Shown here: positions 729 through 48,131 of the stretch, piece after piece
How the letters are laid out: each line of letters begins with the position of its first letter
How positions within the stretch are numbered: the first letter of the stretch is position 1
Assembly: GCA_964016885.1 (NCBI GenBank)
Contig: OZ024740.1
Span: 319,982,001 to 320,046,000, forward strand
From: Eledone cirrhosa
Taxonomy: Eukaryota
Direction: 5' to 3'
DNA: 64,000 bases
Made by a program: the position numbers and the translations under genes
Notes under the pieces: generated by a model
Told to the model about the DNA's origin: nothing
Databases searched by the model: none
Seen by the model: the letters and a program-made list of their open reading frames with translations, nothing else

Positions 729-754
729 AGAAACGAGAGAGCAATAAATCTGAT

Positions 755-917
755 CATTCGACCTGCTAGAAATAGCGATCAAATCCCACTCGAATATCGC
801 GCTGTCGTATTTACAAAAAGACAAGGTAAAGAATGCCAGAAAAAGATAATATGGTCATGGCTAGTCATAAAATGATCGTAGGTTTACTGGTCACAAATAA
901 CCTAGGGCTAAACAACA
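755..917 (+). mobile_element. Remnant of an interspersed octopus SINE-like retroposon (body and 3' end), continuous with the first satellite monomer
   Basis: TTCGACCTGCTAGAAATAGC..CAAATC.C.CTC.AA..ATGGTCATGGCT..TGATCGTAGGT..ACCTAGGGCTAAACAACA follows, from memory, the motif order of a common Octopus repeat ending in GACCTGGGGCTAAACAACAAC. Not verified by search. Confidence 0.6.
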
Positions 918-3900
918 CTATTGATGGTCATGGCTGGTCTTAAAATGATCGTGATCGTAGGTTTACTGGTCACAAGTAAACTAGGGCTAAACAACACTAT
1001 TGATGGTCATGGCTGGTCTTAAAGTGATCGTGATCGTAGGTTTACTGGTCACAAGTAAACTAGGGCTAAACAACACTGTTGATGGTCATGGCTGGTCTTA
1101 AAATGATCGTGATCGTAGGTTTACTGGTCACAAATAACCTAGGGCTAAAGAACACTATTGGTGGTCATGGCTGGTCTTAAAATGATCGTGATCGTAGGTT
1201 TACTGGTCACAAGTAACCTAGGGCGAAACAACACTATTGATGGTCATGGCTGGTCTTAAAATGATCGTGATCGTAGGTTTACTGGTCACAAGTAACCTAG
1301 GTCTAAACAACACTATTGATTATCATGACTGGTCTTAAAATGATCGTGATCGTAGGTTTTACCGGGCACAAGTAGCCTAGGGCTAAACAACACTAATGAT
1401 GGTCATGGCTGGTCTTAAAATGATCGTGATCGTAGGTTTACTGGTCACAAGTAACCTAGGGCTAAACATCACTATTGGTGGTCATGGCTGGTCTTAAAAT
1501 GATCGTGATCGTAGGTTTACTGGTCACAAGTAAACTAGGGCTAAACAACACTATTGATGGTCATGGCTGGTCTTAAAATGATCGTGATCGTAGGTTTACT
1601 GGTCACAAATAACCTAGGGCTAAAGAACACTATTGATGGTCATGGCTGGTCTTAAAATGATCGTGATCGTAGGTTTAAAGTGTCACCAATAACCTAGGGC
1701 TAAACAAAACTATTGATGGTCATGGCTGGTCTTAAAATAATCGTGATCGTAGGTTTAAAGGGTCACCACTAACCTAGGGCTAAACAACACTATTGATGGT
1801 CATGGCTGGTCTTAAAATGATCGTGATCGTAGGTTTAAAGGGTCACCACTAACCTAGGGCTAAACAACACTATTGATGGTCATGGCTGGTCTTAAAATGA
1901 TCGTGATCGTAGGTTTAAAGAGTCACCAATAACCTAGGGCTAAACAAAACTATTGATGGTCATGGCTGGTCTTAAAATGATCGTGATCGTAGGTTTACTG
2001 GTCACAAATAACCTAGGGCTAAACAACACTATTGATGGTCATGGTTGGTCTTAAAATAATCGTGATCGTAGGTTTAAAGGGTCACCACTAACCTAGGGCT
2101 AAACAACACTATTGATCGTCATGGCTGGTCTTAAAATGATCGTGATCGTAGGTTTGAAGGGTCACCACTAACCCCGAGCTAAACAACACTATTGATGGTC
2201 ATGGCTGGTCTTAAAATGATCGTGATGGTAGCTTTACTGGTCACAAGAAACCTAGGGCTAAACAACACTAATGATGGTCATGGCTGGTCTTAAAATGATC
2301 GTGATCGTAGATTTACTGGTCACAAATAACCTAGGGCTAAACAACACTATTGATAGTCATCGCTGGTCTTAAAATGATCGTGATCGTAGGTTTACTGGTC
2401 ACAAGTAACCTAGGTCTAAACAACACTATTGATTATCATGACTGGTCTTAAAATGATCGTGATCGTAGGTTTTACCGGGCACAAGTAGCCTAGGGCTAAA
2501 CAACACTAATGATGCTCATGGCTGGTCTTAAAATGATCGTATGTTTTCTGGTCACAAGTAACCTAGGGCTAAATAACACTATTGATGGTCATGACTGTTC
2601 TTAAAATGATCGTGATCGTAGGTTTACTGGTCACAAATAACCTAGGGCTAAACAACACTATTGATGGTCATGGCTGGTCTTAAAATGATCGTGATCGTAG
2701 GTTTACTGGTCACAAATAACCTAGGGCTAAAGAACACTATTGATGGTCATGGCTGGTCTTAAAATGATCGTGATCGTAGGTTTGAAGGGTCACCACTAAC
2801 CTAGGGCTAAACAACACTATTGATGGTCATGGCTGGTCTTAAAATGATCGTGATGGTAGGTTTACTGGTCAAAAGAAACCTAGGGCTAAACAACAGTAAT
2901 GATGGTCAAGGCTGGTCTTAAAATGATCGTGATCGTAGATTTACTGGTCACAAATAACCTAGGGCTAAACAACACAATTGATAGTCATCGCTGGTCTTAA
3001 AATGATCGTGATCGTAGGTTTACTAGTCAAAAGTAACCTAGGGCTAAACAACACTATTGATGGTCAGCGCTGGTCTTAAAATGATCGTGATCGTAGGTTT
3101 ACTGGTCACAAGTAACCTAGGGCTAAACAACACTATTGATGGTCATGGCTGGTCATAAAATGATCGTGTGTTTACTGGTCACAAGTAACCTAGGGCTAAA
3201 TAACACTATTGATGGTCATGGCTGGTCTTAAAATGATCGTGATGGTAGGTTTACTGGTCACAAGTAACCTAGGGCTAAACAACACTATTGATGTTCATGG
3301 CTGGTCTTAAAATGATCGTGATCGTAGGTTTACTGGCCACAAGTAACCTAGGGCTAAATAACACTAATTATCGTCATGGCTGGTCTTAAAATGTTCGTGA
3401 TCATAGGTTTACTGGTCACAAATAACCTAGGGCTAAATAACACAATCGATGGTCATGGCTGGTCTTAAAATGATCGTGATCGTAGGTTTACTGGTCACAA
3501 ATAACCTAGGGCTAAGCAACACTATTGATGGTCATAACTGGTCTTAAAATGATCGTGATCGTAGGTTTACTGGTCACAAATAACCTAGGGCTAAAGAACA
3601 CTAGTGATGGTCATGGCTGGTCTTAAAATGATCGTGATCGTAGGTTTGAAGGATCACCACTAACCTAGGGCTAAACAACACTATTGATGGTCATGGCTGG
3701 TCTTAAAATGATCGTGATGGTAGGTTTACTGGTCACAAGAAACCTAGGGCTAAACAACAGTAATGATGGTCAAGGCTGGTCTTAAAATGATCGTGATCGT
3801 AGATTTACTGGTCACAAATAACCTAGGGCTAAACAACACTATTGATAGTCATCGCTTGTCTTAAAATGATCGTGATCGTAGGTTTACTAGTCACAAGTAA

Positions 3901-12900: not shown

Positions 12901-15900
12901 GCTTAAAATGATCGTGATCGTAGGTTTACTGGCCACAAGAAACCTAGGGCTAAACAACACTATTGATGGTCATGGCTGGTCTTAAAATGATCGTATGTTT
13001 ACTGGTCACAAGTAACCTAGGGCTAAATAACACTATTGATGGTCATGGCTGGTCTTAAAATGATCGTGATGGTAGGTTTACTGGTCACAAGTAACCTAGG
13101 GCTAATCAACACTATTGATGGCCATCGCTGGTCTTAAAATGATCGTGATCGTAGATTTACTGGTCACAAATAACCTAGGGCTAAACAACACTATTGATGG
13201 TCATGGCTGGTCTTAAAATGATCGTATGTTTACTGGTCACAAGTAACCTAGGGCTAAATAACAATATTGATGGTCATGGCTGGTCTTAAAATAATCGTGA
13301 TGGTAGGTTTACTGGTCACAAATAACCTAGGGCTAAACAACACTATTGATGGCCATGGCTGGTCTTAAAAGGATCGTGATCGTAGGTTTACTGGTCACAA
13401 GTAACCTAGGGCTAAACAAAACTATTGATGGTCATGGCTGGTCTTAAAATGATCGTGATCGTAGGTTTACTGGTCACAAGTAACCTAGGTCTAAACAACA
13501 CTATTGATTATCATGACTGGTCTTAAAATGATCGTGATCGTAGGTTTTACCGGTCACAAGTAGCCTAGGGCTAAACAACACTAATGATGGTCATGGCTGG
13601 TCTTAAAATGATCGTGATCGTAGGTTTACTGGTCACAAATAACCTAGGGCTAAACAACACTATTGATGGTCATCGCTGGTCTTAAAATGATCGTGATCGT
13701 ATGTTTACTGGTCACAAGTAACCTAGGGCTAAACAACACTATTGATGGTCATGGATGGTCTTAAAATGATCGTGATCGTAGGTTTACTGGTCACAAGTAA
13801 CCTAGGGCTAAACAACACTATTGATGTTCATGGCTGGTCTTAAAATGATCGTGATCGTAGGTTTACTGGCCACAAGTAACCTAGGTCTAAACAACACTAA
13901 TGATGGTCATGGCTGGTCTTAAAATGATCGTGATCGTAGGTTTACTGGTCACAAGTAACCTAGGGCTAAACAATACTATTGATGGTCATGGCTAGTCTTA
14001 AAAGGATCGCGATCGTAGGTTTACTGGGTCACAAGTAACCTAGGGCTAAACAACACTATTGATGGTCATGGATGGTCTTAAAATGATCGTGATCGTAGGT
14101 TTACTGGTCACAAGTAACCTAGGGCTAAACAACACTATTGATGTTCATGGCTGGTCTTAAAATGATCGTGATCGTAGGTTTACTGGCCACAAGTAACCTA
14201 GGTCTAAACAACACTAATGATGGTCATGGCTGGTCTTAAAATGATCGTGATCGTAGGTTTACTGGTCACAAGTAACCTAGGGCTAAACAACACTATTGAT
14301 GGTCATTGCTACTCTTAAAATGATCGTGATCGTAGGTTTACTGGCCACAAGAAACCTAGGGCTAAACAACACTAATGATGGTCATGGCTGGTCTTAAAAT
14401 GATCTTGATCCTAGGTTTACTGGTCACAACTAACCAAGGGCTAAACAACACTATTGATGTTCATGGCTGGTCTTAAAATGATCGTGATCGTAGGTTTAAA
14501 AGGTCACAACTAACCTAGGGCTAAACAACACTATTGATAGTCATCGCTGGTCTTAAAATGATCGTGATCGTATGTTTAAAGGGTCACAACTAATCTAGGG
14601 CAAACAACACTATTGATGGTCATCGCTGGTCTAAAAATGATCGTAGGTTTACTGGTCACAAGTAACCTAGGGCTAAACAACACTATTGATGTTCATCGCT
14701 GGTCTTAAAATGATCGTGATCGTAGGTTTACTGGTCACATGTACCCTAGGGCTAAACAACACTATTGATGGTCATGGCTGGTCTTAAAATAATCGCGATC
14801 GTAGGTTTACTGGTCACAAGTAACCTAGGGCTAAACAACACTAATGATGGTCATGGCAGGTCTTAAATTGATCGTGATCGTAGGTTTACTGGTCACAAAT
14901 AACTAGGGCTAAACAATACTATTGATCGTCATGGCTGGTCTTATAATGATCGTGATCGTAGGTTTAAAGGGTCACAACTTACCTAGGGCTAAACAACACT
15001 ATTGATGGTCATGGCTGGTCTTAAAATTATCGTGATCGTAGGTTTACTGGTCACAAGTAACCTAGGGCTAAACAACACTATTGATGGTCATGGCTGATCT
15101 TAAAATGATCGTGATCGTAGGTTTACTGGTCACAAGTAACCTAGGGTTAAACAACACTATTGATGGTCATGGCTGGTCTTAAAATGATCGTGATCGTAGG
15201 TTTACTGGTCACAAGTAACCTATGGCTAAACAACACTAATGATGGTCATGGCTGGTCTTAAAATGATCGTCAATCGTAGGTTTACTGGTCACAAATAACC
15301 TATGGCTAAACAACACTATTGATGGTCATGGCTTGTCTTAAAATGATCGTTATCGTAGGTTTACTGGTCACAAGTAACCTAGGGCTAATCCACACTATTG
15401 ATGGCCATCGCTGGTCTTAAAATGATCGTGATCGTAGGCTTACTGGTCACAAGTAACCTAGGGCTAAACAACACTATTGATGGTCATGGCTGGTCTTAAA
15501 ATGATCGCGATCGTAGGTTTACTGGTCACAAGTAATCTAGGGCTAAACAACACTATTGATGGTCATGGCTGGTCTTAAAATGACCGTGATCGTAGGTTTA
15601 CTGGTCACAAGTAACCTAGGGCTAAACAACAGTAATGATTGTCCTGGCTGGTCTTAACATGATCGTGATCGTAGGATAACTGGTCACAAATAACCTAGGG
15701 CTAAACAACACTATTGATGTTCATGGCTGGTCTTAAAATGATCGTGATCGTAGGTTTAAAAGGTCACAACTAACCTAGGGCTAAACAACACTATTGATAG
15801 TCATCGCTGGTCTTAAAATGATCGTGATCGTAGGTTTAAAGGGTCACAACTTACCTAGGGCTAAACAACACTATTGATGGTCATGGCTGGTCTTAAAATT

Positions 15901-18900
15901 ATCGTGATCGTAGGTTTACTGGTCACAAGTAACCTAGGGCTAAACAACACTATTGATGGTCATGGCAGATCTGAAAATGATCGTGATCGTAGGTTTACTG
16001 GTCACAAGTAACCTATGGCTAAACAACACTATTGATGGTCATGGCTGGTTTTTAAATGATCGTCAATCGTAGGTTTACAGGACACAAGTAACCTAGGGCT
16101 AAACAGCACTATTGATGGTCATTGCTAGTCTTAAAATGATCGTGATCGTAGGTTTACTGGTCACAAGTAACCTAGGGCTAAACAACACTATGGTTGGTCA
16201 TGGTTGGTCTTAAAATGATCGAGATCGTAGGTTTAAAGGGTCACAACTAACCTAGGGCTAAACAACACTATTGATGGTCATGGCTGGTCTTAAAATGATC
16301 GTGATCGTAGGTTTACTGGTCACTAGTAACTTAGGGCTAAACAACACTATTGATGGTCATCGCTGGTCTTAAAATGATCGTGATCGTAGGTTTACTGGTC
16401 ACAAGTACCCTAGGACTAAACAACACTATTGATGGTCATGGCTGGTCTTAAAATGATCGAGATCGTAGGTTTAAAGGGTCACAACTAACCTAGGGCTAAA
16501 CAACACTATTGATGGTCATGGCTGGTCTTAAAATTATCGTGATCGTAGGTTTACTGGTCACAAGTAACCTAGGGCTAAACAACACTATTGATGGTCATGG
16601 CTGCTCTTAAAATGATCGTGATCGTAGGTTTGAAGGGTCACCACTAACCTAGGGCTAAACAACACTATTGATGTTCATGGCTGGTCTTAAAATGATAGTG
16701 ATCGTAGGTTTACTGGTAACGAGTAACCTAGGGCTAAACAACACTATTGATGGTCATGGCTGGTCTTAAAATGATCGTCAATCTTAGGTTTACTAGTCAC
16801 AAGTAACCTAGGGCGAAACAACACTATTGGTTGTCAATGCTGGTCTTAAAATGATCGTGATCGTAGGTTTACTGGTCACAAGTAACCTAAGGCTAAACAA
16901 CACTAATGATGGCCATGGCTGGTCTTAAAATGATTGTGATCCTAGGTTTACTGGTCACAAATAACCTAGGGCTAAACAACACTATTGATGGTCATTGCTG
17001 GTCTTAAAATGATCTTGATGGTAGGCTTGCTGGTCACAATTAACCTAGGTCTAAATAACACTATTGATGGTCATGGCTGGTCTTAAAATGATCGTGATCG
17101 TAGGTTTAGCGGTGACAAGTAACCTAGGGCTAAACAACACTAATGATGGTCATGGCTGGTCTTAAAATGATCGTGATCGTAGGTTTACTGGTCACAAATA
17201 ACCTAGCGCTAAACAACATTATTGATGGTCATCGCTGGTCTTAAAATGATCGTGATCGTAGGTTTACTGGTCACAAGTAACCTAGGGCTAAACAACACTA
17301 TTGATGTTCATGGCTGGTTTTAAAATGATCGTGATCATAGGTTTACTGGTCACAAGTAACCTAGGGTTAAACAACACTATTGATGGTCATGGCTGGTCTT
17401 AAAATGATGGTGATCATAGGTTTACTGGTCACAAGTAACCTAGGGCTAAACAGTACTATTGATGTTCATGGCTGGTCTTAAAATGATCGTGATCATAGGT
17501 TTACTGGTCACAAGTAACCTAGGGTTAAACAACACTAATGATGGTCATGGCTGGTCTTAAAATGATCGTGATCGTAGGTTTAAAGTGTCACAACTAACCT
17601 AGGGCTAAACAACACTATTGATGATCATGGCTGGGCTTAAAATGATCGTGATCGTAGGTTTACTGGCCACAAGAAACCTAGGGCTAAACAACACTAATGA
17701 TGGTCATGGCTGGTCTTAAAATGATCTTGATCCTAGGTTTACTGGTCACAACTAACCTAGGGCTAAACAACACTATTGGTGTTCATGGCTGGTCTTAAAA
17801 TGATCGTGATCGTAGGTTTAAAAGGTCACAACTAACCTAGGGCTAAACAACACTATTGATAGTCATCGCTGGTCTTAAAATGATCGTGATCATATGTTTA
17901 AAGGGTCATAACCAATCTAGGGCTAAACAACACTATTGATGGTCATCGCTGGTCTAAAAATGATCGTAGGTTTACTGGTCACAAGTAACCTAGGGCTAAA
18001 CAACACTATTGATGTTCATCGCTGGTCTTAAAATGATCATGATCGTAGGTTTACTGGTCACATGTACCCTAGGGCTAAACAACACTATTGATGGTCATGG
18101 CTGGTCTTAAAATAGTCGCGATCGTAGGTTTACTGGTCACAAGTAACCTAGGGCTAAACAACACTAATGATGGTAATGGCAGGTCTTAAAATGATCGTGA
18201 TCGTAGGTTTACTGGTCACAAATAACTAGGGCTAAACAATACTATTGATCGTCATGGCTGGTCATATAATGATCGTGATCGTAGGTTTAAAGGGTCACAA
18301 GTAACCTAGGGCTAAACAACACTATTGATGGTCATGGCTGGTCTTAAAATGATCGTGATCGTAGGTTTACTGGTCACAAGTAACCTAGGGTTAAACAACA
18401 CTATTGATGGTCATGGCTGGTCTTAAAATGATCGTGATCGTAGGTTTACTGGTCACAAGTAACCTATGGCTAAACAACACTAATGATGGTCATGGCTGGT
18501 CTTAAAATGATCGTCAATCGTAGCTTTACTGGACACAAGTAACCTAGTGCGAAACAACACTATTGATGGTCATTGCTGGTCTTAAAATGATCGTGATCGT
18601 AGGTTTACTGGTCACAATTAACCTAGGGCTAAACAACACTATTGAATGTCGTGGCTGGTCTCTAAAATGATGGTGTTCGTAGGTTTACTGGTCACAAATA
18701 ACCTATGGCTAAACAACACTATTGATGGTCATGGCTTGTCTTAAAATGATCGTGATAGTAGGTTTACTGGTCACAAGTAACCTAGGGCTAATCAACACTA
18801 TTGATGGCCATCGCTGGTCTTAAAATGATCGTGATCGTAGGTTTACTGGTCACAATTAACCTAGGGCTAAACAACACTATTGAATGTCATGGCTGGTCTC

Positions 18901-27900: not shown

Positions 27901-30900
27901 TGATCATGATCGTAGGTTTACTGGTCACATGTACCCTAGGGCTAAACAACACTATTGATGGTCATGGCTGGTCTTAAAATAATCGCGATCGTAGGTTTAC
28001 TGGTCACAAGTAACCTAGGGCTAAACAATACTATTGATCGTCATGGCTGGTCTTAAAATGATCGTGATCGTAGGTTTAAAGGGTCACAACTTACCTATGG
28101 CTAAACAACACTATTGATGGTCATGGCTGGTCTTAAAATGATCGTGATCGTAGGTTTACTGGTCACAAATAACCTAGGGCTAAACAACACTATTGATGGT
28201 CATGGCTGGTCTTAAAATGATGGTGATCGTAGGTTTACTGGTCACAAGTAAACTAGGGCTAAACAACACTATTGATGGTCATGGCTGGTCTTAAAATGAA
28301 CGTCACTCTTAGGTTTACTAGTCACAAGTAACCTAGGGCGAAACAACACTATTGGTTGTCAATGCTGGTCTTAAAATGATCGTGATCGTAGGTTTACTGG
28401 TCACAAGTAACCTAAGGCTAAACAACACTAATGATGGCCATGGCTGGTCTTAAAATGGTTGTGATCCTAGGTTTACTGGTCACAAATAACCTAGGTCTAA
28501 ACAACACTATTGATGGTCTTGGCTGGTCTTAAAATGATCGTGATCGTAGGTTTAGCGGTGACAAGTAACCTAGGGCTAAACAACACTAATGATGGTCATG
28601 GCTGGTCTTAAAATGATCGTGATCGTAGGTTTACTGGTCACAAATAACCTAGCGCTAAACAACACTATTGATGGTCATCGCTGGTCTTAAAATGATCGTG
28701 ATCGTAGGTTTACTGGTCACAAGTAACCTAGGGCTAAACAACACTATTGATGTTCATGGCTGGTCTTAAAATGATCGTGATCATAGGTTTACTGGTCACA
28801 AGTAACCTAGGGTTAAACAACACTATTGATGGTCATGGCTGGTCTTAAAATGATGGTGATCGTAGGTTTACTGGTCACAAGTAACCTAGGGCTAAACAAC
28901 ACTATTGATGGTAGCCTAGTCTTAAAAGGATCGTGATCGTAGGTTTACTGGTCACAAGTAACCTAGGGCTAAAGAATACTATTGATGTTCATGGCTGGTC
29001 TTAAAATGATCGTGATCATAGGTTTACTGGTCACAAGTAACCTAGGGTTAAACAACACTAATAATGGTCATGGCTGGTCTTAAAATGATCGTGATCGTAG
29101 GTTTACTGGTCACAAATAACCTTGGGCTAAACAACAATATTGATGGTCATGGCTGGTCTTAAAATGTCGTGATCGTAGGTTTAAAGTGTCACAACTAACC
29201 TAGGGCTAAACAACACTGTTGATGATCATGGCTGGGCTTAAAATGATCGTGATCGTAGGTTTACAGGCCACAAGAACCCTAGGGCTAAACAACACTAATG
29301 AGCGTCATGGCTAGTCTTAAAATGATCTTGATCCTAGGTTTACTGGTCACAACTAACCTAGGGCTAAACAACACTATTGATGTTCATGGCTGGTCTTAAA
29401 ATGATTGTGATCATAGGTTTACTGGTCACAATAACCTAGGGCTAAACAACACTATTGATGTTCATGGCTGGTCTTAAAATGATCGTGATCGTAGGTTTAA
29501 AAGGTCACAACTAACCTAGGGCTAAACAACACTATTGATAGTCATCGCTGGTCTTAAAATGATCGTGATCATATGTTTAAAGGGTCACAACTAATCTAGG
29601 GCTAAACAACACTATTGATGGTCATCGCTGGTCTAAAAATGATCGTAGGTTTACTGGTCACAAGTAACCTAGGGCTAAACAACACTATTGATGTTCATCG
29701 CTGGTCTTAAAATGATCATGATCGTAGGTTTACTGGTCACATGTACCCTAGGGCTAAACAACACTATTGATGGTCATGGCTGGTCTTAAAATAATCGCGA
29801 TCGTAGGTTTACTGGTCACAAGTAACCTAGGGCTAAACAACACTAATGATGGTAATGGCAGGTCTTAAAATGATCGTGATCGTAGGTTTACTGGTCACAA
29901 ATAACTAGGGCTAAACAATACTATTGATCGTCGTGGCTGGTCTTAAAATGATCGTGATCGTAGGTTTAAAGGCTCACAAGTAACCTAGGGCTAAACAACA
30001 CTATTGATGGTCATGGCTGGTCTTAAAATGATCGTGATCGTAGGTTTACTGGTCACAAATAACCTAGGGCTAAACAACACTATTGATGGTCATGGCTGGT
30101 CTTAAAATGATGGTGATCGTAGGTTTACTGGTCACAAGTAACCTAGGGCTAAACAACACTATTGATGGTAGCCTAGTCTTAAAAGGATCGTGATCGTAGG
30201 TTTACTGGTCACAAGTAACCTAGGGCTAAACAATACTATTGATGGTCATGGCTGGTCTTAAAAGGATCGTGATCGTAGGTTTACTGGTCACAAGTAACCT
30301 AGGGCTAAACAATACTATTGATGGTCATGGCTGGTCTTAAAAGGATCGTGATCGTAGGTTTACTGGTCACAAGTAACCTAGGGCTAAACAACACTATTGA
30401 TAGTCATGGCTGGTCTTAAAATAATCGTGATCGTAGGTTTACTGGTCACAAATAACCTAGGGCTAAACATCACTATTGATGGTCATCGCTGGTCTTAAAA
30501 TGATCGTGATCTTATGTTTACTGGTCACAAGTAACCTAGGGCTAAACAACACTATTGATGGTGATGGCTGGTCTTAAAATGATCGTGATCGTAGGTTTAC
30601 TGGTCACGAGTAACCTAGGGCTAAACAACACCATTGATGGTCATGGCTGGTCTTAAAATGATCGTGATCGTAGATTTACTGGTCACAAGTAACCTAGGGC
30701 TAAACAACACTATTGATGGTCATGGCTGGTCTTAAAATGATCGTGATCGTAGGGTTACTGGTCACAAATAACCTAGGGCTAAACAACACTATTGATGGTC
30801 ATGGCTGGTCTTAAAATGATCGTGATCGTAGGTTTAAAGGGTCACAACTAACCTAGGGCTAAACAACACTATTGATGGTCATGGCAGGTCTTAAAATGAT

Positions 30901-33900
30901 GGTGATCGTAGGTTTACTGGTCACAAGTAAACTAGGGCTAAACAACACTATTGATGGTAGCCTAGTCTTAAAAGGATCCTGATCGTAGGTTTACTGGTCA
31001 CAAGTAACCTAGGGCTAAACAACACTTTTGATGGTAGGCTGATCTTAAAAGGATCGTGATCGTAGGTTTACTGGTCACAAGTAACCTAGGGCTAAACAAT
31101 ACTATTGATGGTAATGGCTGGTTTTAAAAGGATCGTGATCGTAGGTTTACTGGTCACAACTAACCTAGGGCTAAACAATACTATTGATGGTGATGGCTGG
31201 TCTTAAAATGATCGTGATCGTAGGTTTACTGGTAACAAGTAACCTAGGGCTAAACAATACTATTGATGGTCATCGCTGGTCTTAAAAGGATCGTGATCGT
31301 AGGTTTACTGGTCACATGTAACCTAGGGCTAAACAATACTATTGATGGTGATGGCTGGTCTTAAAATGATCGTGATCGTAGGTTTACTGGTCACAAATAA
31401 CCTAGGGCTACACAACACTATTGATGGTCATGGCTGGTCTTAAAATGATCGTGATCGTATGTTTACTGGTCACAAGTAACCTAGGGCTAAACAACACTAT
31501 TGATGGTGATGGCTGGTCTTAAAATGCTCGTGATCGTAGGTTTACTGGTCACAAGTAACCTAGGGCTAAACAATACTATTGATGTTCATGGCTGGTCTTA
31601 AAATGATCGTGATCATAGGTTTACTGGTCACAAGTAACCTAGGGTTAAACAACACTAATGATGGTCATGGCTGGTCTTAAAATGATCGTGATCGTAGGTT
31701 TACTGTTCACAAATAACCTTGGGCTAAACAACAATATTGATGGTCATGGCTGGTCTTAAAATGTCGTGATCGTAGGTTTAAAGTGTCACAACTAACCTAG
31801 GGCTAAACAACACTGTTGATGATCATGGCTGGGTTTAAAATGATCGTGATCGTAGGTTTACTGGCCACAAGAACCCTAGGGCTAAACAACACTAATGATG
31901 GTCATGGCTGGTCTTAAAATGATCTTGATCCTAGGTTTACTGGTCACAACTAACCTAGGGCTAAACAACACTATTGATGTTCATGGCTGGTCTTAAAATG
32001 ATCGTGATCATATGTTTAAAGGGTCACAACTAATCTAGGGCTAAACAACACTATTGATGGTCATGGCTGGTCTTAAAATGATCGTGATCATATGTTTAAA
32101 GGGTCACAACTAATCTAGGGCTAAACAACACTATTGATGGTCATGGCTGGTCTTAAAAGGATCGTGATCGTAGGTTTAAAAGGTCACAACTAACCTAGGG
32201 CTAAACAACACTATTGATAGACATCGCTGGTCTTAAAATGATCGTGATCATATGTTTAAAGGGTCACAACTAATCTAGGGCTAAACAACACTATTGATGG
32301 TCATGGCTGGTCTTAAAAGGATCGTGATCGTAGGTTTACTGGTCACAAGTAACCTAGGGCTAAACAACACTATTGATGGTCATGGCTGGTCTTAAAATGA
32401 TCGTGATCGTAGGTTTACTGGTCACAAATAACCTAGGGCTAAACAACACTATTGATGGTCATCGCTGGTCTTAAAATGATCGTGATCTTATGTTTACTGG
32501 TCACAAGTAACCTAGGGCTAAACAACACTATTGATGGTGATGGCTGGTCTTAAAATGATCGTGATCGTAGGTTTACTGGTCACAAGTAACCTAGGGCTAA
32601 ACAACACCATTGATGGTCATGGCTGGTCTTAAAATGATCGTGATCGTAGATTTACTGGTCACAAGTAACCTAGGGCTAAACAACACTATTGATGGTCATG
32701 GCTGGTCTTAAAATGATCGTGATCGTAGGGTTGCTGGTCACAAATAACCTAGGGCTAAAAAACACTATTGATGGTCATGGCTGGTCTTAAAATGATCGTG
32801 ATCGTAGGTTTAAAGGGTCACAACTAACCTAGGGCTAAACAACACTATTGATGGTCATGGCTGGTCTTAAAATGATCGTGATCGTAGGTTTAAAGGGTCA
32901 CAACTAACCTAGGGCTAAACAACACTATTGATGGTCATGGCAGGTCTTAAAATGATGGTGATCGTAGGTTTACTGGTCACAAGTAACCTAGGGCTAAACA
33001 ACACTATTGATGGTAGCCTAGTCTTAAAAGGATCCTGATCGTAGGTTTACTGGTCACAAGTAACCTAGGGCTAAACAACACTATTGATGGTAGGCTGATC
33101 TTAAAAGGATCGTGATCGTAGGTTTACTGGTCACAAGAAACCTAGGGCTAAACAATACTATTGATGGTAATGGCTGGTTTTAAAAGGATCGTGATCGTAG
33201 GTTTACTGGTCACAACTAACCTAGGGCTAAACAATACTATTGATGGTCATGGCTGGTCTTAAAAGCATCGTGATCGTAGGTTTACTAGTCACAAATAACC
33301 TAGGGCTACACAACACTATTGATGGTCATCGCTTGTCTTAAAATGATCGTGATCTTATGTTTACTGGTCACAAGTAACCTAGGGCTAAACAACACTATTG
33401 ATGGTGATGGCTGGTCTTAAAATGATCGTGATCGTAGGTTTACTGGTCACAAGTAACCTAGGGCTAAACAACACTATTGATGGTAGTTTGATCTTAAAAG
33501 GATCGTGATCGTAGGTTTACTGGTCACAAGTAACCTAGGGCTAAACAATACTATTGATGGTCATGGCTGGTCTTAAAAGCATCGTGATCGTAGGTTTACT
33601 AGTCACAAATAACCTAGGGCTACACAACACTATTGATGGTCATCGCTTGTCTTAAAATGATCGTGATCTTATGTTTACTGGTCACAAGTAACCTAGGGCT
33701 AAACAACACTATTGATGGTGATGGCTGGTCTTAAAATGATCGTGATCGTAGGTTTACTGGTCACAAGTAACCTAGGGCTAAACAACACTATTGATGGTAG
33801 GTTGATCTTAAAAGGATCGTGATCGTAGGTTTACTGGTCACAAGTAACCTAGGGCTAAACAACACTATTGATGGTAGGTTGATCTTAAAAGGATCGTGAT

Positions 33901-36900
33901 CGTAGGTTTACTGGTCACAAGTAACCTAGGGCTAATCAACACTATTGATGGTAGCCTGGTTTTAAAAGGATCGTGATCGTAGGTTTACTGGTAACAAGTA
34001 ACCTAGGGCTAAACAATACTATTGATGGTCATCGCTGGTCTTAAAAGGATCGTAGGTTTACTGGTCACAAGTAACCTAGGGCTAAACAACACTATTGATG
34101 GTAGCCTGGTTTTAAAAGGATCGTGATCGTAGGTTTACTGGTAACAAGTAACCTAGGGCTAAACAACACTATTGATGGTCATGGCTGGTCTTAAAATGAT
34201 CGTAGGTTTACTGGTTACAAGTAACCTAGGGCTAAACAACACTATTGATGGTAGCCTAGTCTTAAAAGGATCGTGATCGTAGGTTTACTGGTCACAAGTA
34301 ACCTAGGGCTAAACAATACTATTGATGGTCATGGCTGGTCTTAAAAGGATCGTGATCGTAGGTTTACTGGTCACAAGTAACCTAGGGCTAAACAATACTA
34401 TTGATGGTCATGGCTGGTCTTAAAAGGATCGTGATCGTAGGTTTACTGGTCACAAGTAACCTAGGGCTAAACAACACTATTGATAGTCATGGCTGGTCTT
34501 AAAATAATCGTGATCGTAGGTTTACTGGTCACAAATAACCTAGGGCTAAACATCACTATTGATGGTCATCGCTGGTCTTAAAATGATCGTGATCTTATGT
34601 TTACTGGTCACAAGTAACCTAGGGCTAAACAACACTATTGATGGTGATGGCTGGTCTTAAAATGATCGTGATCGTAGGTTTACTGGTCACGAGTAACCTA
34701 GGGCTAAACAACACCATTGATGGTCATGGCTGGTCTTAAAATGATCGTGATCGTAGATTTACTGGTCACAAGTAACCTAGGGCTAAACAATACTATTGAT
34801 GGTCATGGCTGGTCTTAAAAGGATCGTGATCGTAGGTTTACTGGTCACAAGTAACCTAGGGCTAAACAACACTATTGATAGTCATGGCTGGTCTTAAAAT
34901 AATCGTGATCGTAGGTTTACTGGTCACAAATAACCTAGGGCTAAACATCACTATTGATGGTCATCGCTGGTCTTAAAATGATCGTGATCTTATGTTTACT
35001 GGTCACAAGTAACCTAGGGCTAAACAACACTATTGATGGTGATGGCTGGTCTTAAAATGATCGTGATCGTAGGTTTACTGGTCACGAGTAACCTAGGGCT
35101 AAACAACACCAGTGATGGTCATGGCTGGTCTTAAAATGATCGTGATCGTAGATTTACTGGTCACAAGTAACCTAGGGCTAAACAACACTATTGATGGTCA
35201 TGGCTGGTCTTAAAATGATCGTGATCGTAGGGTTACTGGTCACAAATAACCTAGGGCTAAACAACACTATTGATGGTCATGGCTGGTCTTAAAATGATCG
35301 TGATCGTAGGTTTAAAGGGTCACAACTAACCTAGGGCTAAACAACACTATTGATGGTCATGGCAGGTCTTAAAATGATGGTGATCGTAGGTTTACTGGTC
35401 ACAAGTAAACTAGGGCTAAACAACACTATTGATGGTAGCCTAGTCTTAAAAGGATCCTGATCGTAGGTTTACTGGTCACAAGTAACCTAGGGCTAAACAA
35501 CACTTTTGATGGTAGGCTGATCTTAAAAGGATCGTGATCGTAGGTTTACTGGTCACAAGTAACCTAGGGCTAAACAATACTATTGATGGTAATGGCTGGT
35601 TTAAAAAGGATCGTGATCGTAGGTTTACTGGTCACAACTAACCTAGGGCTAAACAATACTATTGATGGTGATGGCTGGTCTTAAAATGATCGTGATCGTA
35701 GGTTTACTGGTAACAAGTAACCTAGGGCTAAACAATACTATTGATGGTCATCGCTGGTCTTAAAAGGATCGTGATCGTAGGTTTACTGGTCACATGTAAC
35801 CTAGGGCTAAACAATACTATTGATGGTGATGGCTGGTCTTAAAATGATCGTGATCGTAGGTTTACTGGTCACAAATAACCTAGGGCTACACAACACTATT
35901 GATGGTCATGGCTGGTCTTAAAATGATCGTGATCGTATGTTTACTGGTCACAAGTAACCTAGGGCTAAACAACACTATTGATGGTGATGGCTGGTCTTAA
36001 AATGCTCGTGATCGTAGGTTTACTGGTCACAAGTAACCTAGGGCTAAACAATACTATTGATGTTCATGGCTGGTCTTAAAATGATCGTGATCATAGGTTT
36101 ACTGGTCACAAGTAACCTAGGGTTAAACAACACTAATGATGGTCATGGCTGGTCTTAAAATGATCGTGATCGTAGGTTTACTGGTCACAAATAACCTTGG
36201 GCTAAACAACAATATTGATGGTCATGGCTGGTCTTAAAATGTCGTGATCGTAGGTTTAAAGTGTCACAACTAACCTAGGGCTAAACAACACTGTTGATGA
36301 TCATGGCTGGGTTTAAAATGATCGTGATCGTAGGTTTACTGGCCACAAGAACCCTAGGGCTAAACAACACTAATGATGGTCATGGCTGGTCTTAAAATAA
36401 TCTTGATCCTAGGTTTACTGGTCACAACTAACCTAGGGCTAAACAACACTATTGATGTTCATGGCTGGTCTTAAAATGATCGTGATCGTAGGTTTAAAAG
36501 GTCACAACTAACCTAGGGCTAAACAACACTATTGATAGACATCGCTGGTCTTAAAATGATCGTGATCATATGTTTAAAGGGTCACAACTAATCTAGGGCT
36601 AAACAACACTATTGATGGTCATGGCTGGTCTTAAAAGGATCGTGATCGTAGGTTTACTGGTCACAAGTAACCTAGGGCTAAACAACACTATTGATGGTCA
36701 TGGCTGGTCTTAAAATGATCGTGATCGTAGGTTTACTGGTCACAAATAACCTAGGGCTAAACAACACTATTGATGGTCATCGCTGGTCTTAAAATGATCG
36801 TGATCTTATGTTTACTGGTCACAAGTAACCTAGGGCTAAACAACACTATTGATGGTGATGGCTGGTCTTAAAATGATCGTGATCGTAGGTTTACTGGTCA

Positions 36901-39900
36901 CAAGTAACCTAGGGCTAAACAACACCATTGATGGTCATGGCTGGTCTTAAAATGATCGTGATCGTAGATTTACTGGTCACAAGTAACCTAGGGCTAAACA
37001 ACACTATTGATGGTCATGGCTGGTCTTAAAATGATCGTGATCGTAGGGTTGCTGGTCACAAATAACCTAGGGCTAAACAACACTATTGATGGTCATGGCT
37101 GGTCTTAAAATGATCGTGATCGTAGGTTTAAAGGGTCACAGCTAACCTAGGGCTAAACAACACTATTGATGGTCATGGCTGGTCTTAAAATGATCGTGAT
37201 CGTAGGTTTAAAGGGTCACAACTAACCTAGGGCTAAACAACACTATTGATGGTCATGGCAGGTCTTAAAATGATGGTGATCGTAGGTTTACTGGTCACAA
37301 GTAACCTAGGGCTAAACAACACTATTGATGGTAGCCTAGTCTTAAAAGGATCCTGATCGTAGGTTTACTGGTCACAAGTAACCTAGGGCTAAACAACACT
37401 ATTGATGGTAGGCTGATCTTAAAAGGATCGTGATCGTAGGTTTACTGGTCACAAGTAACCTAGGGCTAAACAATACTATTGATGGTAATGGCTGGTTTTA
37501 AAAGGATCGTGATCGTAGGTTTACTGGTCACAACTAACCTAGGGCTAAACAATACTATTGATGGTCATGGCTGGTCTTAAAAGCATCGTGATCGTAGGTT
37601 TACTAGTCACAAATAACCTAGGGCTACACAACACTATTGATGGTCATCGCTTGTCTTAAAATGATCGTGATCTTATGTTTACTGGTCACAAGTAACCTAG
37701 GGCTAAACAACACTATTGATGGTGATGGCTGGTCTTAAAATGATCGTGATCGTAGGTTTACTGGTCACAAGTAACCTAGGGCTAAACAACACTATTGATG
37801 TTAGGCTGATCTTAAAAGGATCGTGATCGTAGGTTTACTGGTCACAAGTAACCTAGGGCTAAACAATACTATTGATGGTAATGGCTGGTTTTAAAAGGAT
37901 CGTGATCGTAGGTTTACTGGTAACAAGTAACCTAGGGCTAAACAATACTATTGATGGTCATCGCTGGTCTTAAAAGGATCGTGATCGTAGGTTTACTGGT
38001 CACAAGTAACCTAGGGCTAAACAACACTATTGATGGTAGCCTAGTCTTAAAAGGATCGTGATCGTAGGTTTACTGGTCACAAGTAACCTAGGGCTAAACA
38101 ATACTATTGATGGTAATGGCTGGTCTTAAAAGGATCGTGATCGTAGGTTTACTGGTCACAAGTAACCTAGGGCTAAACAATACTATTGATGGTCATGGCT
38201 GGTCTTAAAAGGATCGTGATCGTAGGTTTACTGGTCACAAGTAACCTAGGGCTAAACAACACTATTGATAGTCATGGCTGGTCTTAAAATAATCGTGATC
38301 GTAGGTTTACTGGTCACAAATAACCTAGGGCTAAACATCACTATTGATGGTCATCGCTGGTCTTAAAATGATCGTGATCTTATGTTTACTGGTCACAAGT
38401 AACCTAGGGCTAAACAACACTATTGATGGTGATGGCTGGTCTTAAAATGATCGTGATCGTAGGTTTACTGGTCACGAGTAACCTAGGGCTAAACAACACC
38501 ATTGATGGTCATGGCTGGTCTTAAAATGATCGTGATCGTAGATTTACTGGTCACAAGTAACCTAGGGCTAAACAACACTATTTATGGTCATGGCTGGTCT
38601 TAAAATGATCGTGATCGTAGGGTTACTGGTCACAAATAACCTAGGGCTAAACAACACTATTGATGGTCATGGCTGGTCTTAAAATGATCGTGATCGTAGG
38701 TTTAAAGGGTCACAACTAACCTAGGGCTAAACAACACTATTGATGGTCATGGCAGGTCTTAAAATGATGGTGATCGTAGGTTTACTGGTCACAAGTAAAC
38801 TAGGGCTAAACAACACTATTGATGGTAGCCTAGTCTTAAAAGGATCCTGATCGTAGGTTTACTGGTCACAAGTAACCTAGGGCTAAACAACACTTTTGAT
38901 GGTAGGCTGATCTTAAAAGGATCGTGATCGTAGGTTTACTGGTCACAAGTAACCTAGGGCTAAACAATACTATTGATGGTAATGGCTGGTTTTAAAAGGA
39001 TCGTGATCGTAGGTTTACTGGTCACAACTAACCTAGGGCTAAACAATACTATTGATGGTGATGGCTGGTCTTAAAATGATCGTGATCGTAGGTTTACTGG
39101 TAACAAGTAACCTAGGGCTAAACAATACTATTGATGGTCATCGCTGGTCTTAAAAGGATCGTGATCGTAGGTTTACTGGTCACATGTAACCTAGGGCTAA
39201 ACAATACTATTGATGGTGATGGCTGGTCTTAAAATGATCGTGATCGTAGGTTTACTGGTCACAAATAACCTAGGGCTACACAACACTATTGATGGTCATG
39301 GCTGGTCTTAAAATGATCGTGATCGTATGTTTACTGGTCACAAGTAACCTAGGGCTAAACAACACTATTGATGGTGATGGCTGGTCTTAAAATGCTCGTG
39401 ATCGTAGGTTTACTGGTCACAAGTAACCTAGGGCTAAACAATACTATTGATGTTCATGGCTGGTCTTAAAATGATCGTGATCATAGGTTTACTGGTCACA
39501 AGTAACCTAGGGTTAAACAACACTAATGATGGTCATGGCTGGTCTTAAAATGATCGTGATCGTAGGTTTACTGGTCACAAATAACCTTGGGCTAAACAAC
39601 AATATTGATGGTCATGGCTGGTCTTAAAATGTCGTGATCGTAGGTTTAAAGTGTCACAACTAACCTAGGGCTAAACAACACTGTTGATGATCATGGCTGG
39701 GTTTAAAATGATCGTGATCGTAGGTTTACTGGCCACAAGAACCCTAGGGCTAAACAACACTAATGATGGTCATGGCTGGTCTTAAAATGATCTTGATCCT
39801 AGGTTTACTGGTCACAACTAACCTAGGGCTAAACAACACTATTGATGTTCATGGCTGGTCTTAAAATGATCGTGATCGTAGGTTTAAAAGGTCACAACTA

Positions 39901-42900
39901 ACCTAGGGCTAAACAACACTATTGATAGACATCGCTGGTCTTAAAATGATCGTGATCATATGTTTAAAGGGTCACAACTAATCTAGGGCTAAACAACACT
40001 ATTGATGGTCATGGCTGGTCTTAAAAGGATCGTGATCGTAGGTTTACTGGTCACAAGTAACCTAGGGCTAAACAACACTATTGATGGTCATGGCTGGTCT
40101 TAAAATGATCGTGATCGTAGGTTTACTGGTCACAAATAACCTAGGGCTAAACAACACTATTAATGGTCAACGCTGGTCTTAAAATGATCGTGATCTTATG
40201 TTTACTGGTCACAAGTAACCTAGGGCTAAACAACACTATTGATGGTGATGGCTGGTCTTAAAATGATCGTGATCGTAGGTTTACTGGTCACAAGTAACCT
40301 AGGGCTAAACAACACCATTGATGGTCATGGCTGGTCTTAAAATGATCGTGATCGTAGATTTACTGGTCACAAGTAACCTAGGGCTAAACAACACTATTGA
40401 TGGTCATGGCTGGTCTTAAAATGATCGTGATCGTAGGGTTGCTGGTCACAAATAACCTAGGGCTAAACAACACTATTGATGGTCATGGCTGGTCTTAAAA
40501 TGATCGTGATCGTAGGTTTAAAGGGTCACAACTAACCTAGGGCTAAACAACACTATTGATGGTCATGGCTGGTCTTAAAATGATCGTGATCGTAGGTTTA
40601 AAGGGTCACAACTAACCTAGGGCTAAACAACACTATTGATGGTCATGGCAGGTCTTAAAATGATGGTGATCGTAGGTTTACTGGTCACAAGTAACCTAGG
40701 GCTAAACAACACTATTGATGGTAGCCTAGTCTTAAAAGGATCCTGATCGTAGGTTTACTGGTCACAAGTAACCTAGGGCTAAACAACACTATTGATGGTA
40801 GGCTGATCTTAAAAGGATCGTGATCGTAGGTTTACTGGTCGCAAGTAACCTAGGGCTAAACAATACTATTGATGGTAATGGCTGGTTTTAAAAGGATCGT
40901 GATCGTAGGTTTACTGGTCACAACTAACCTAGGGCTAAACAATACTATTGATGGTCATGGCTGGTCTTAAAAGCATCGTGATCGTAGGTTTACTAGTCAC
41001 AAATAACCTAGGGCTACACAACACTATTGATGGTCATCGCTTGTCTTAAAATGATCGTGATCTTATGTTTACTGGTCACAAGTAACCTAGGGCTAAACAA
41101 CACTATTGATGGTGATGGCTGGTCTTAAAATGATCGTGATCGTAGGTTTACTGGTCACAAGTAACCTAGGGCTAAACAACACTATTGATGGTAGGCTGAT
41201 CTTAAAAGGATCGTGATCGTAGGTTTACTGGTCACAAGTAACCTAGGGCTAAACAATACTATTGATGGTAATGGCTGGTTTTAAAAGGATCGTGATCGTA
41301 GGTTTACTGGTAACAAGTAACCTAGGGCTAAACAATACTATTGATGGTCATCGCTGGTCTTAAAAGGATCGTGATCGTAGGTTTACTGGTCACATGTAAC
41401 CTAGGGCTAAACAATACTATTGATGGTGATGGCTGGTCTTAAAATGATCGTGATCGTAGGTTTACTGGTCACAAATAACCTAGGGCTACACAACCCTATT
41501 GATTCTCATGGCTGGTCTTAAAATGATCGTGATCGTATGTTTACTGGTCACAAGTAACCTAGGACTAAACAACACTATTGATGGTGATGGCTGGTCTTAA
41601 AATGCTCGTGATCGTAGGTTTACTGGTCACAAGTAACCTAGGGCTAAACAACACTATTGATGGTAATGGCTGGTCTTAAAATGCTCGTGATCGTAGGTTT
41701 ACTGGTCACAAGTAACCTAGGGCTAAACAATACTATGGATGGTCATGGCTGGTCTTAAAATGATCGTGATCGTAGGTTTACTGGTCACAAATAACCTAGG
41801 GCTACACAACACTATTGATGGTCACGGCTGGTCTTAAAATGATCGTCAATCGTAGGTTTACTGGTCACAAGTAACCTAGGGCGAAACAACACTAATGATG
41901 GTCATGGCTGGTCTTAAAATTATCGTGATCGTAGGTTTACTGGTCACAAGTAACCTTGGGCTAAACAACACTATTGATGTTCATGGCTGGTCTTAAAATG
42001 ATCGTGATCGTAGGTTTACTGGTCCCAAGTAACCTAGGACTAAACAACACTAATGATGGTCATGGCTGGTCTTAAAATGATCGTCAATCGTAGGTTTACT
42101 GGTCACAAGTAACCTAGGGCGAAACAACACTATTGATGGTCATTGCTGGTCTTAAAATATTCGTGATCGTAGGTTTACTCGTCACAATTAACCTAGGGCT
42201 AAACAACACTATTGATGGTCATGGCTGGTCTTAAAATGATCGTAATCGTAGGTTTACTGGTCGCAAGTAGCCTAGGGCTAATCAACACTATTGATGGCCA
42301 TCGCTGGTCTTAAAATGATCGTGATCGTAGGCTTACTGGTCACAAGTAACCTAGGGCTAAACAACACAATTGATGGTCATGGCTGGTCTTAAAATGATAG
42401 TAATCGTAGGTTTACTGGTCACAAGTAACCTAGGGCTAATCAACACTATTGATGGCCATCGCTGGTCTTTAAATGATCGTGATCGTAGGCTTACTGGTCA
42501 CAAGTAGCCTATGGCTAAACAACACTATTGATGGTCATGGCTGATCTTAAAATGATCGCGATCGTAGGTTTACTGGTCACAAGTAACCTAGGGCTAAACA
42601 ACACTATTGATGGTCATGGCTGGTCTTAAAATGATCGTGATCGTAGGTTTACTGGTCACAAATAACCTAGGGCTAAACAACACTATTGATGGTCATGGCT
42701 GGTCTTAAAATGATCGTGACCGTAGGTTTAAAGGGTCACAACTAACCTAGGGCTAAACAACACTATTGATGGTCATGGCTGGTCTTAAAATTATTGTGAT
42801 CGTAGGTTTACTGGTCACAAGTAACCTAGGGCTAAACAATACTATTGATGGTCATGGCTGGTCTTAAAAGGATCGTGATCGTAGGTTTACTGGTCACAAG

Positions 42901-45900
42901 TAACCTAGGGCTAAACAACACTATTGATGGTAGCCTGGTCTTAAAAGGATCGTGATCGTAGGTTTACTGCTCACAAGTAACCTAGGGCTAAACAACACTA
43001 TTGATGGTCACGGCTGGTCTTAAAATGATCGTGATCGTAGGTTTACTGGTCACAAGTAAGCTAGGGCAAAACAACACTAATGATGGTCATGGCTGGTCTT
43101 AAAATGATCGTGATCGTAGGTTTACTGGTCACAAGTAACCTAGGGCAAAACAACACTAATGATGGTCATGGCTGGTCTTAAAATTATCGTGATCGTAGGT
43201 TTACTGGTCACAAGTAACCTAGGGCTAAACAACACTAATGATGGTCATGGCTGGTCTTAAAATGATCGTCAATCGTAGGTTTACTGGTCACAAATAACCT
43301 ATGGCTAAACAACACTATTGATGGTCATGGCTGGTCTTAAAATGATCGTAATCGTAGGTTTACTGGTCACAAGTAACCTAGCGCTAATCAACACTATTGA
43401 TGGCCATCGCTGGTCTTAAAATGATCGTGATCGTAGGCTTACTTGTCACAAGTAACCTAGGGCTAAACAACACTATTGATGGTCATGGCTGATCTTAAAA
43501 TGATCGCGATCGTAGGTTTACTGGTCACAAGTAACCTAGGGCTAAACAACACTATTGATGGTCATGGCTGGTCTTAAAATAATCGTGATCGTAGGTTTAC
43601 TGGTCACAAATAACCTAGGGCTAAACAACACTATTGATGGTCATGGCTGGTCTTAAAATGATGGTGATCGTAGGTTTACAGGTCACAACTAACCTAGGGC
43701 TAAACAACACTATTGATGGTAGCCTGGTCTTAAAATGATCGTGATCGTAGGTTTACTGATCACAAGTAACCTAGGGCTAAACAACACTATTGATGGTCAT
43801 GGCTGGTCTTAAAATGATCGTGATCGTAGGTTTACTGGTCACAAGTAACCTAGGGCTAAACAACACTATTGATGGTCATGGCTGGTCTTAAAATGATCGT
43901 GATCGTAGGTTTACTGGTCACAAGTAACCTATTGCTAAACAACACTATTGATGGTAGGCTGATCTTAAAAGGATCGTGATCTTAGGTTTACTGGTCACAA
44001 GTAACCTAGGGCTAAACAATACTATTGATGGTCATGGCTGGTCTTAAAATGATCGTGATCGTAGGTTTACTGGTCACAAGTAACCTAGGGCTACACAATA
44101 CTATTGATGGTCATGGCTGGTCTTAAAAGGATCGTGATCGTAGGTTTACTGGTCACAAGTAACCTAGGGCTAAACAACACTATTGATGGTAGCCTGGTCT
44201 TAAAAGGATCGTGATCGTAGGTTTACTGGTCACAAGTAACCTAGGGCTAAACAACACTATTGATGGTCACGGCTGGTCTTAAAATGATCGTGATCGTAGG
44301 TTTACTGGTCACAAGTAAGCTAGGGCAAAACAACACTAATGATGGTCATGGCTGGTCTTAAAATTATCGTGATCGTAGGTTTACTGGTCACAAGTAACCT
44401 AGGGCTAAACAACACTAATGATGGTCATGGCTGGTCTTAAAATGATCGTCAATCGTAGGTTTACTGGTCACAAATAACCTATGGCTAAACAACACTATTG
44501 ATGGTCATGGCTGGTCTTAAAATGATCGTAATCGTAGGTTTACTGGTCACAAGTAACCTAGCGCTAATCAACACTATTGATGGCCATCGCTGGTCTTAAA
44601 ATGATCGTGATCGTAGGCTTACTTGTCACAAGTAACCTAGGGCTAAACAACACTATTGATGGTCATGGCTGATCTTAAAATGATCGCGATCGTAGGTTTA
44701 CTGGTCACAAGTAACCTAGGGCTAAACAACACTATTGATGGTCATGGCTGGTCTTAAAATAATCGTGATCGTAGGTTTACTGGTCACAAATAACCTAGGG
44801 CTAAACAACACTATTGATGGTCATGGCTGGTCTTAAAATGATGGTGATCGTAGGTTTACAGGTCACAACTAACCTAGGGCTAAACAACACTATTGATGGT
44901 AGCCTGGTCTTAAAAGGATCGTGATCGTAGGTTTACTGGTCACAAGTAACCTAGGGCTAAACAATACTATTGATGGTCATGGCTGGTCTTAAAAGGATCG
45001 TGATCGTAGGTTTACTGGTCACAAGTAACCTAGGGTTAAACAATACTATTGATGGTCATGGCGGGTCTTAAAATGATCGTGATCGTAGGTTTACTGGTCA
45101 CAAATAACCTAGGGCTAAACAACACTATTGATGGTCATGGCTGGTCTTAAAATTATCGTGATCGTAGGTTTACTGGTCACAAGTAACCTAGGGCTAAACA
45201 ACACTATTGATGGTCATGGCTGGTCTTAAAATGATCGTGATCGTAGGTTTACTGATCACAAGTAACCTAGGGCTAAACAACACTATTGATGGTCATGGCT
45301 GGTCTTAAAATGATCGTGATCGTAGGTTTACTGGTCACAAGTAACCTAGGGCTAAACAACACTATTGATGGTCATGGCTGGTCTTAAAATGATCGTGATC
45401 GTAGGTTTACTGGTCACAAGTAACCTAGGGCTAAACAACACTATTGATGGTAGGCTGATCTTAAAAGGATCGTGATCTTAGGTTTACTGGTCACAAGTAA
45501 CCTAGGGCTAAACAATACTATTGATGGTCATGGCTGGTCTTAAAATGATCGTGATCGTAGGTTTACTGGTCACAAGTAACCAAGGGCTACACAATACTAT
45601 TGATGGTCATGGCTGGTCTTAAAAGGATCGTGATCGTAGGTTTACTGGTCACAAGTAACCTAGGGCTAAACAACACTATTGATGGTCATGGCTGGTCTTA
45701 AAATGATCGTGATCGTAGGTTTACTGATCGCAAGTAACCTAGGGCTAAACAACACTATTGTTGGTCATGGCTGGTCTTAAAATGATCGTGATCGTAGGTT
45801 TACTGGTCACAAGTAACCTAGGGCTAAACAACACTATTGATCGTCATGGCTGGTCTTAAAATGATCGTGATCGTAGGTTTACTGGTCACAAGTAACCTAG

Positions 45901-46130
45901 GCCTAAATAACACTATTGATGGTAGGCTGATCTTAAAAGGATCGTGATCTTAGGTTTACTGGTCACAAGTAACCTAGGGCTAAACAATACTATTGATGGT
46001 CATGGCTGGTCTTAAAAGGATCGTGATCGTAGGTTTACTGGTCACAAGTAACCTAGGGCTAAACAACACTATTGATGGTGATGGCTGGTCTTAAAATGAT
46101 CGTGATCGTAGATTTACTGGTCACAACTAC
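851..46130 (+). repeat. 79-bp tandem satellite array, about 45.3 kb, about 570 monomers, with higher-order repeats
   Basis: Consensus CTATTGATGGTCATGGCTGGTCTTAAAATGATCGTGATCGTAGGTTTACTGGTCACAAGTAACCTAGGGCTAAACAACA. Variants: 80 bp (TTTAAAGGGTCAC; period 80 at 1741/1821/1901), 73 bp (single GATCGT), 77 bp (GGTAGCCTAGTC). All head-to-tail in one orientation; I saw no insertion. Confidence 0.98.
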
Positions 46131-47841: not shown

Positions 47842-47874
<33 letters not shown>

Positions 47875-48045: not shown

Positions 48046-48131
48046 TCAAGCAAGCTTTCAGACAGCTGAGTGACAACCATCTACGAAATTATGAAATGGC
48101 GCCAAGGCAACAACTCAGCTGAGAGCTAATT

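Follow-up and report, generated by a model that had tools for sequence, protein, structure and literature searches.

Passages of Vassetzky, Kosushkin and Ryskov (2023; PMC10702118) describe satellites of squamates (sSats) with a unit of ~70–290 nt that comes from any part of a SINE, in some of them from the 3', LINE-derived part. According to the same passages, the longest loci contain 320, ~950 and >1,200 units, homogeneity is ~90% or higher, and growth is ascribed to unequal recombination. Tandem dimers of transposable elements have been treated as seeds of satellites in part of the work of McGurk and Barbash (2018, PMC5932611), and tandem SINE arrays of 2–15 units are described for bivalves in sections of PMC11481361.

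The second group of described systems comprises the 3' modules of stringent LINEs and their SINEs. Passages of PMC4176376 on ZfL2-1 and ZfL2-2 indicate that the reverse transcriptase (RT) of such LINEs recognises the cognate loop and requires the stem. In stringent LINE/SINE pairs, as described in parts of PMC4176376, PMC4824008 and PMC3747384, the tails are also found in a known LINE, lie at the 3' end of the element and have compensatory changes. In bivalves, CR1/L2 partners have a 3' stem-loop and repeat tails (sections of PMC4824008).

The window, i.e., the whole stretch of 64,000 nt of Eledone cirrhosa contig OZ024740.1 analyzed here, contains a long satellite array with a possible remnant of its parent at the left-hand side. 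The array and its surroundings have the following features:

1–735, plus strand: degenerate (CAC/CCA)n microsatellite of the left flank, 82% C+A
750–795, plus strand: conserved core of a dispersed multi-copy element (the parent copy), no head seen upstream
796–850, plus strand: presumed diverged body of the parent, probably continuous with the core, ending in the A-rich tract where the array unit begins
851–46,132, plus strand: 79-bp satellite array, ~574 units in one orientation, head-to-tail, ~45 kb
851–917, plus strand: first unit (hairpin and AACAACA), which does not have the 6-nt TGATCG duplication present in the consensus unit
15,461–30,538, plus strand: largest internal duplication, 15,461–22,725 being repeated at 23,198–30,538 with an offset of 98–99 units, ~7.8 kb
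30,146–41,403, plus strand: approximately three related blocks with offsets of 43, 55–57 and 98–100 units
45,323–45,348, plus strand: example of the consensus hairpin, -6.6 kcal/mol
45,349–45,361, plus strand: example of the tail remnant, GGGCTAAACAACA
46,133–48,050, plus strand: degenerate (CCA/CAC)n microsatellite of the right flank; the array stops just before it, within the 3' arm of the hairpin, and no tail follows

Tandem Repeats Finder determined a period of 79 and 574.3 copies at 873–46,126, while sequence homologous to the unit extends from 851 to 46,132. The array was cut at an anchor, and the 574 anchors gave 573 complete units, which are the denominator of the unit counts below. 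No inverted units were found in the array. The consensus trimer has stops in all six frames, and a coding role was rejected on this ground. At the two CpG sites of the unit, transitions are not in excess of transversions within 851–46,132; passages of PMC9476566 report that octopus satellites have relatively higher methylation than transposons.

The array is similar to sSats in having a short unit that probably originates from an interspersed element and is present in at least four middle units (here, 79 bp and 573 units). In addition, both have an extended terminal unit on one side, which is represented here by the dispersed core at 750–795, the sequence between the core and the first unit (796–850) being unmatched at 80%. 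The homogeneity is also that of long sSat loci: the 573 units have a mean identity of 95.1% to the consensus and of 90.6% in pairwise comparison. In contrast to sSats, the host is an octopod, the parent is only presumed to be a SINE and has no tRNA head at the locus, the array unit is confined to the last ~70 nt and a tail remnant, and variants are arranged in multi-kb blocks, whereas sSats show di- or trimeric alternation. The array works like an sSat, and its membership in this group is conditional on a SINE parent. If the parent is a SINE, the distribution of SINE-derived satellites would extend from scaled reptiles to cephalopods.

As for the open literature, to which the search was confined (subscription journals, Repbase and Dfam being outside its scope), no description of an sSat-like case in octopus was found. 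The element is not named in the passages of PMC10700109, PMC12988792, PMC9795677 and PMC4758252 that were available, and motifs of the array had 0 occurrences in the supplements of PMC8967140, as well as in the searched part of the supplements of PMC9115989. In the papers themselves, the motifs had a single hit, which was unrelated.

The array is probably a satellite derived from the 3' end of a retroposon, with a parent that was likely SINE-like, and it appears to have grown by unequal recombination at the DNA level, the hairpin and the AAC remnant probably being inherited relics and not functional RT sites. The origin of the unit was assessed by comparing positions 705–945 of the window, at 80% likeness, with four of six sequencing runs (at most three samples, two studies). 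The core at 750–795, which is located 55 bp upstream of the first unit, was matched by dozens of contigs with differing neighbours; for 66 core-matching contigs in run X1 and 71 in run X2, position 777 is the sole difference from the window. RAD reads on 750–795 continue into unlike DNA in 100% and 91% of cases (23 reads each). The differing neighbours of the contigs, together with the RAD reads that run into unlike DNA, indicate that 750–795 belongs to a dispersed multi-copy element. No run record was found for 804–848 at ≥80%. Positions 873–945 are covered in the runs by satellite sequence, with head-to-tail joints in contigs of X1 and X2 and in two reads of X5; as these joints come from two studies, the tandem arrangement is not confined to the assembly. 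The runs contain a 0.10–0.13 share of the sampled words of the array, and may thus come from another individual or a close species.

A single contig of 1,284 nt, detected in two runs of one sample, aligns to 851–917 over 68 letters, of which 13 differ, with 3 gaps (~80%). Beyond 917, it continues with ATAACAGTCACCCA, including ATAACA, as a longer degenerate AAC-type tail, after which the core resumes at 761. The unit therefore exists in a non-array copy that has a longer AAC-type tail and adjoins the same core. All other dispersed records are <80% alike to the unit. The order in this contig is tail and then core, and no record joins the core to the unit in the 5'-to-3' direction. The first unit of the array lacks TGATCG and is equal in length to the match of the contig, as expected if 851–917 is the ancestral end. 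In a separate observation, the junction from 917 back to 761 suggests that the element also occurs in tandem, with a longer unit, elsewhere in the genome.

The initial annotation considered the unit to be the 3' module of a SINE/LINE family. The dispersed left flank and the non-array copy with its longer AAC tail agree with this, and the unit probably does correspond to the 3' terminus of a dispersed element. No tRNA head is present at this locus. The parentage proposed from sequence comparison is drawn from one contig with the tail-then-core order. ARAGORN found no tRNA gene, no Rfam families were matched in window positions 1–2,000, and no exact B box is present upstream or in the array, one look-alike with 1 mismatch being located at 777. 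As tRNA head, Rfam match and exact B box are all absent upstream, the label "SINE" for the parent is only presumptive. A Pol III transcript started at a lost head would run into TTTT at 1,357, one of 26 such sites. A second TGCTAGAAATA at 48,834 (minus strand) was rejected as another copy of the parent, since equally good scores were obtained with 82 of 100 shuffled cores.

An abundant interspersed repeat of octopus presumably has a core of this kind, with a hairpin and an AAC tail behind it. A 1994 paper reportedly dealt with the octopus SINEs OR1, OR2 and OK. A pattern scan of JGI metagenomes gave 11 loci, which were judged to be due to chance and contained neither core nor unit between the anchors. 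Viral contigs showed 0 matches in both scans, GTDB genomes showed 0 matches, and no match was found among plasmids.

The course of events may be reconstructed as follows. A copy of the element would have come to lie within a CAC/CCA microsatellite, where its core survives at 750–795. The last ~70 bases would then have been duplicated between the AAC tail and the upstream A-rich tract by slippage or unequal exchange, a slip of the RT being possible for this step alone. The pattern of the array shows successive duplications, mainly with offsets of 43–100 units, presumably produced by unequal exchange; this expansion would have carried hairpin-intact and hairpin-broken units alike. Lastly, the tail of the last unit would have been lost at the right boundary.

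Another possible beginning, which we consider rather unlikely, is that the RT of a partner LINE slipped or re-primed on the tail and generated the first dimer or oligomer, which was later enlarged by block duplication. The 3' boundary of the unit corresponds to the A-rich tail of the element and the 5' boundary to the A-rich tract of the parent, and a tail-to-core junction does occur in a dispersed contig. The CAC/CCA microsatellites on both sides could favour insertion by annealing of the tail, and passages of PMC5932611 attribute dimers of transposable elements to repeated insertion at preferred sites. However, DNA slippage fits the same boundaries equally well. In addition, no target-site duplication (TSD) was found at the boundaries of the array, where the only matches are CCA repeats of 6–7 nt away from the boundaries; the array thus differs from a direct TPRT product, which ends in a tail and is flanked by TSDs. 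The dispersed junction goes back to 761, away from the start of the array unit, so the dispersed form is not an oligomer of the 79-bp unit. As in the dimers of transposable elements and the SINE arrays of bivalves, retroelement sequence is arranged here head-to-tail, with the tail-to-core junction in one contig. Those cases are mostly whole-element or short, whereas a 79-bp fragment is repeated here ~574 times. Both CAC/CCA flanks (1–735 and 46,133–48,050) have the same orientation and sub-repeats of their own of 35–53 bp; a target preference of the parent or an expansion of its tail is possible.

Growth after seeding proceeded in blocks. Duplicated blocks include 447 of the 573 units, versus 0 in each of 20 shuffles of unit order. 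Identical units are adjacent in 9 of 733 pairs, and the longest identical run is 2. RT priming would be expected to leave runs of like neighbours, and both counts argue against it as the mechanism of growth. Identity peaks at offsets of 99, 98, 43, 45, 100, 57 and 55 units, and the duplicated blocks comprise 67, 41, 31, 25 and 23 units. Over 1,982 bp, the copies of the largest duplication (15,461–17,442 and 23,198–25,179) do not differ at all, so this duplication is either very recent or an assembly artefact; the near-identical block of 7.8 kb could be an assembly duplication. In the blocks of 30,146–41,403, a pair of 3,234 bp has 10 differences. The offsets vary along the array (11, 15, 19, 43, 45, 49, 55, 57, 98–100 and 110 units), blocks differ in divergence, and the best offset shifts, so the array does not have the single stable n-mer period of a regular higher-order repeat. 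The readable history of block duplications and the parent stub beside the array make this locus a clean example of satellite birth.

The initial annotation suggested that the array could have started by repeated re-priming of the RT or by template jumping, or by rolling-circle amplification. As a mode of growth, re-priming is not supported, given the kilobase-scale block duplications and an array end without tail or TSD. The rolling-circle version, in which circles of several kb were amplified and reinserted to give the blocks, is improbable. Blocks with offsets of 43–57 units do stand two to three times in a row; nevertheless, no period is common to the whole array, and the shifting offsets would be better explained by successive unequal exchanges than by one rolling circle, as would the different divergence of the blocks. 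Such mechanisms are reviewed in passages of PMC12628747.

According to the initial annotation, each monomer contains a hairpin followed by a (CAA)-type tail, as well as a second possible stem. The consensus does contain TAGGTT(T)AC-loop-GTAACCTA, then GGGCTAAACAACA, and the second stem GATGGTCAT/ATGATCGT. The extension of this arrangement to each monomer does not hold: the exact 26-nt hairpin occurs 198 times and the hairpin with tail 93 times. All eight pairs of the hairpin stem are intact in 253 of the 573 units and the outer six in 434; 222 units have a disrupted inner C-G pair, and the loop is unchanged in 391. The second stem has all eight pairs in 219 of the 573 units, and its variability exceeds that of the remaining positions (7.8% versus 4.2%, p 0.002). 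As for the tail, only AACAACA is present in the array, and AACAACAAC has 0 occurrences. The array resembles the modules of stringent LINEs and SINEs in that a short stem-loop precedes a short-repeat tail by a few bases, but differs from them in that its units are internal, the tail is cut to AACAACA, no covariation is seen in the array and no partner LINE is present in the window.

The strength of the hairpin is at the chance level. The best hairpin of 26, 30 or 40 nt was equalled by 16%, 22% and 24% of 300 dinucleotide shuffles, respectively. The z-scores were +0.33, -0.12, -1.02 and -0.48 for RNA folding and +0.14, -0.25 and +0.14 for DNA folding. Four further stretches gave z-scores of -0.80, +0.80, +0.72 and -1.72, of which the first folds into an alternative structure; the last two interrupt the hairpin and do not test it. 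The chance-level strength of the hairpin, together with the lack of a record spanning 804–848, would suit a coincidence: a dispersed element with no relation to the unit, its core in the left flank being a mere neighbour, and a hairpin and tail that arose by chance. Such a coincidence is hardly probable, however, given that the non-array contig aligns over exactly 851–917 and adjoins the same core, and that the first unit lacks TGATCG and has the length found in the non-array contig.

In the folding models, the stem had a probability of 0.81 when hairpin and tail were folded by themselves and of 0.47 at the centre of a consensus 5-mer. In 5-mers of real units (60 sampled from 383 clean units), the median probability was 0.11, and 19 of the 60 exceeded 0.5. 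In modelled multimers, the stem is mostly out-competed by other folds.

Selection on the stem was assessed by several measures. Among the distinct substitution alleles of the stem, 4 of 27 keep pairing versus 4.3 expected, and a compensatory change was found in 1 copy. The covariation score was reached by 292 of 500 shuffles. RNAalifold predicted 0 pairs in the last 32 bases of 109 variants, a set that consists of distinct variants only and over-weights variants. On a parsimony tree built from 178 distinct units free of indels, the stem did not show a reduced number of changes per site (p 0.80 with eight pairs and 0.25 with the outer six), and none of stem, loop and tail shows a lower value (p 0.25–0.80). 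Distinct alleles are fewer at the outer six pairs than at base-matched sites (p 0.007 with all rows and 0.04 with the 387 rows free of indels, in 15 tests with no correction). The percentage of paired cells was reached by just 4 of 500 shuffles, although relatedness alone can raise this measure. The signal in the outer stem is a weak hint of stem constraint or of hairpin-templated repair. A maintained structure for RT recognition, as put forward in the initial annotation, is not borne out, as covariation is absent within the array and the stem is mostly out-competed in multimers.

It is very improbable that putative transcripts of the array, with their stem-loop and tail, would serve as a substrate or decoy of the RT or as a source of small RNA against the family: the probability of the isolated hairpin and tail, the 19 real units that exceeded 0.5 in a 5-mer, the outer stem intact in 434 units, the loop unchanged in 391 and the binding of 3' stem-loops by stringent LINE RTs (passages of PMC4176376) are in its favour, but they are opposed by the median stem probability of 0.11, the absence of covariation, a unit <80% alike to all but one dispersed record while RT recognition needs a cognate loop, the lack of an exact B box, with only the look-alike at 777, the TTTT at 1,357, and a sole LINE in the window with an unrelated 3' end. 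A putative transcribed, multivalent RT sponge or template, seeded by the RT, with a weakly selected outer stem and a satellite that would regulate the parent family, is likewise very doubtful and is retained as admissible because of the fewer alleles of the outer stem. At present, nothing in the array speaks for a new RT-related function, and its derivation from a retroposon 3' end with growth by unequal recombination remains the preferred reading.

The right-hand part of the window contains other elements, including the following LINE:

49,380–55,000, minus strand: near full-length, frameshifted LINE with a zinc-knuckle ORF1 region, APE endonuclease (Exo_endo_phos), RT (RVT_1) and zf-RVT

The best named match of this LINE was a protein of Argonauta hians (64%), and cuttlefish proteins showed 42–52%, in agreement with an octopod host. 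By its layout, we take it to be L1/Tx1-like. As a partner of the array it was rejected, since its 3' end is unlike the unit; no match to the unit scored above shuffles within 46,201–64,000 (score of 29 versus a shuffle mean of 28.8). In addition, a tRNA-derived SINE-like copy is located at 56,195–56,390 (minus strand). The one exact B box detected in the window belongs to this copy (56,311), and the tail of the copy does not resemble the array unit. An ORF of 244 aa at 58,177–58,911 (plus strand) encodes cysteine pairs and a YIG motif and has no Pfam match. Its motifs suggest what is presumably a Penelope-like GIY-YIG endonuclease. Finally, a short repeat is present in three related copies within 60,070–60,790 and 63,330–63,470, and two of these copies flank a two-copy tandem of 129 bp at 60,342–60,614.
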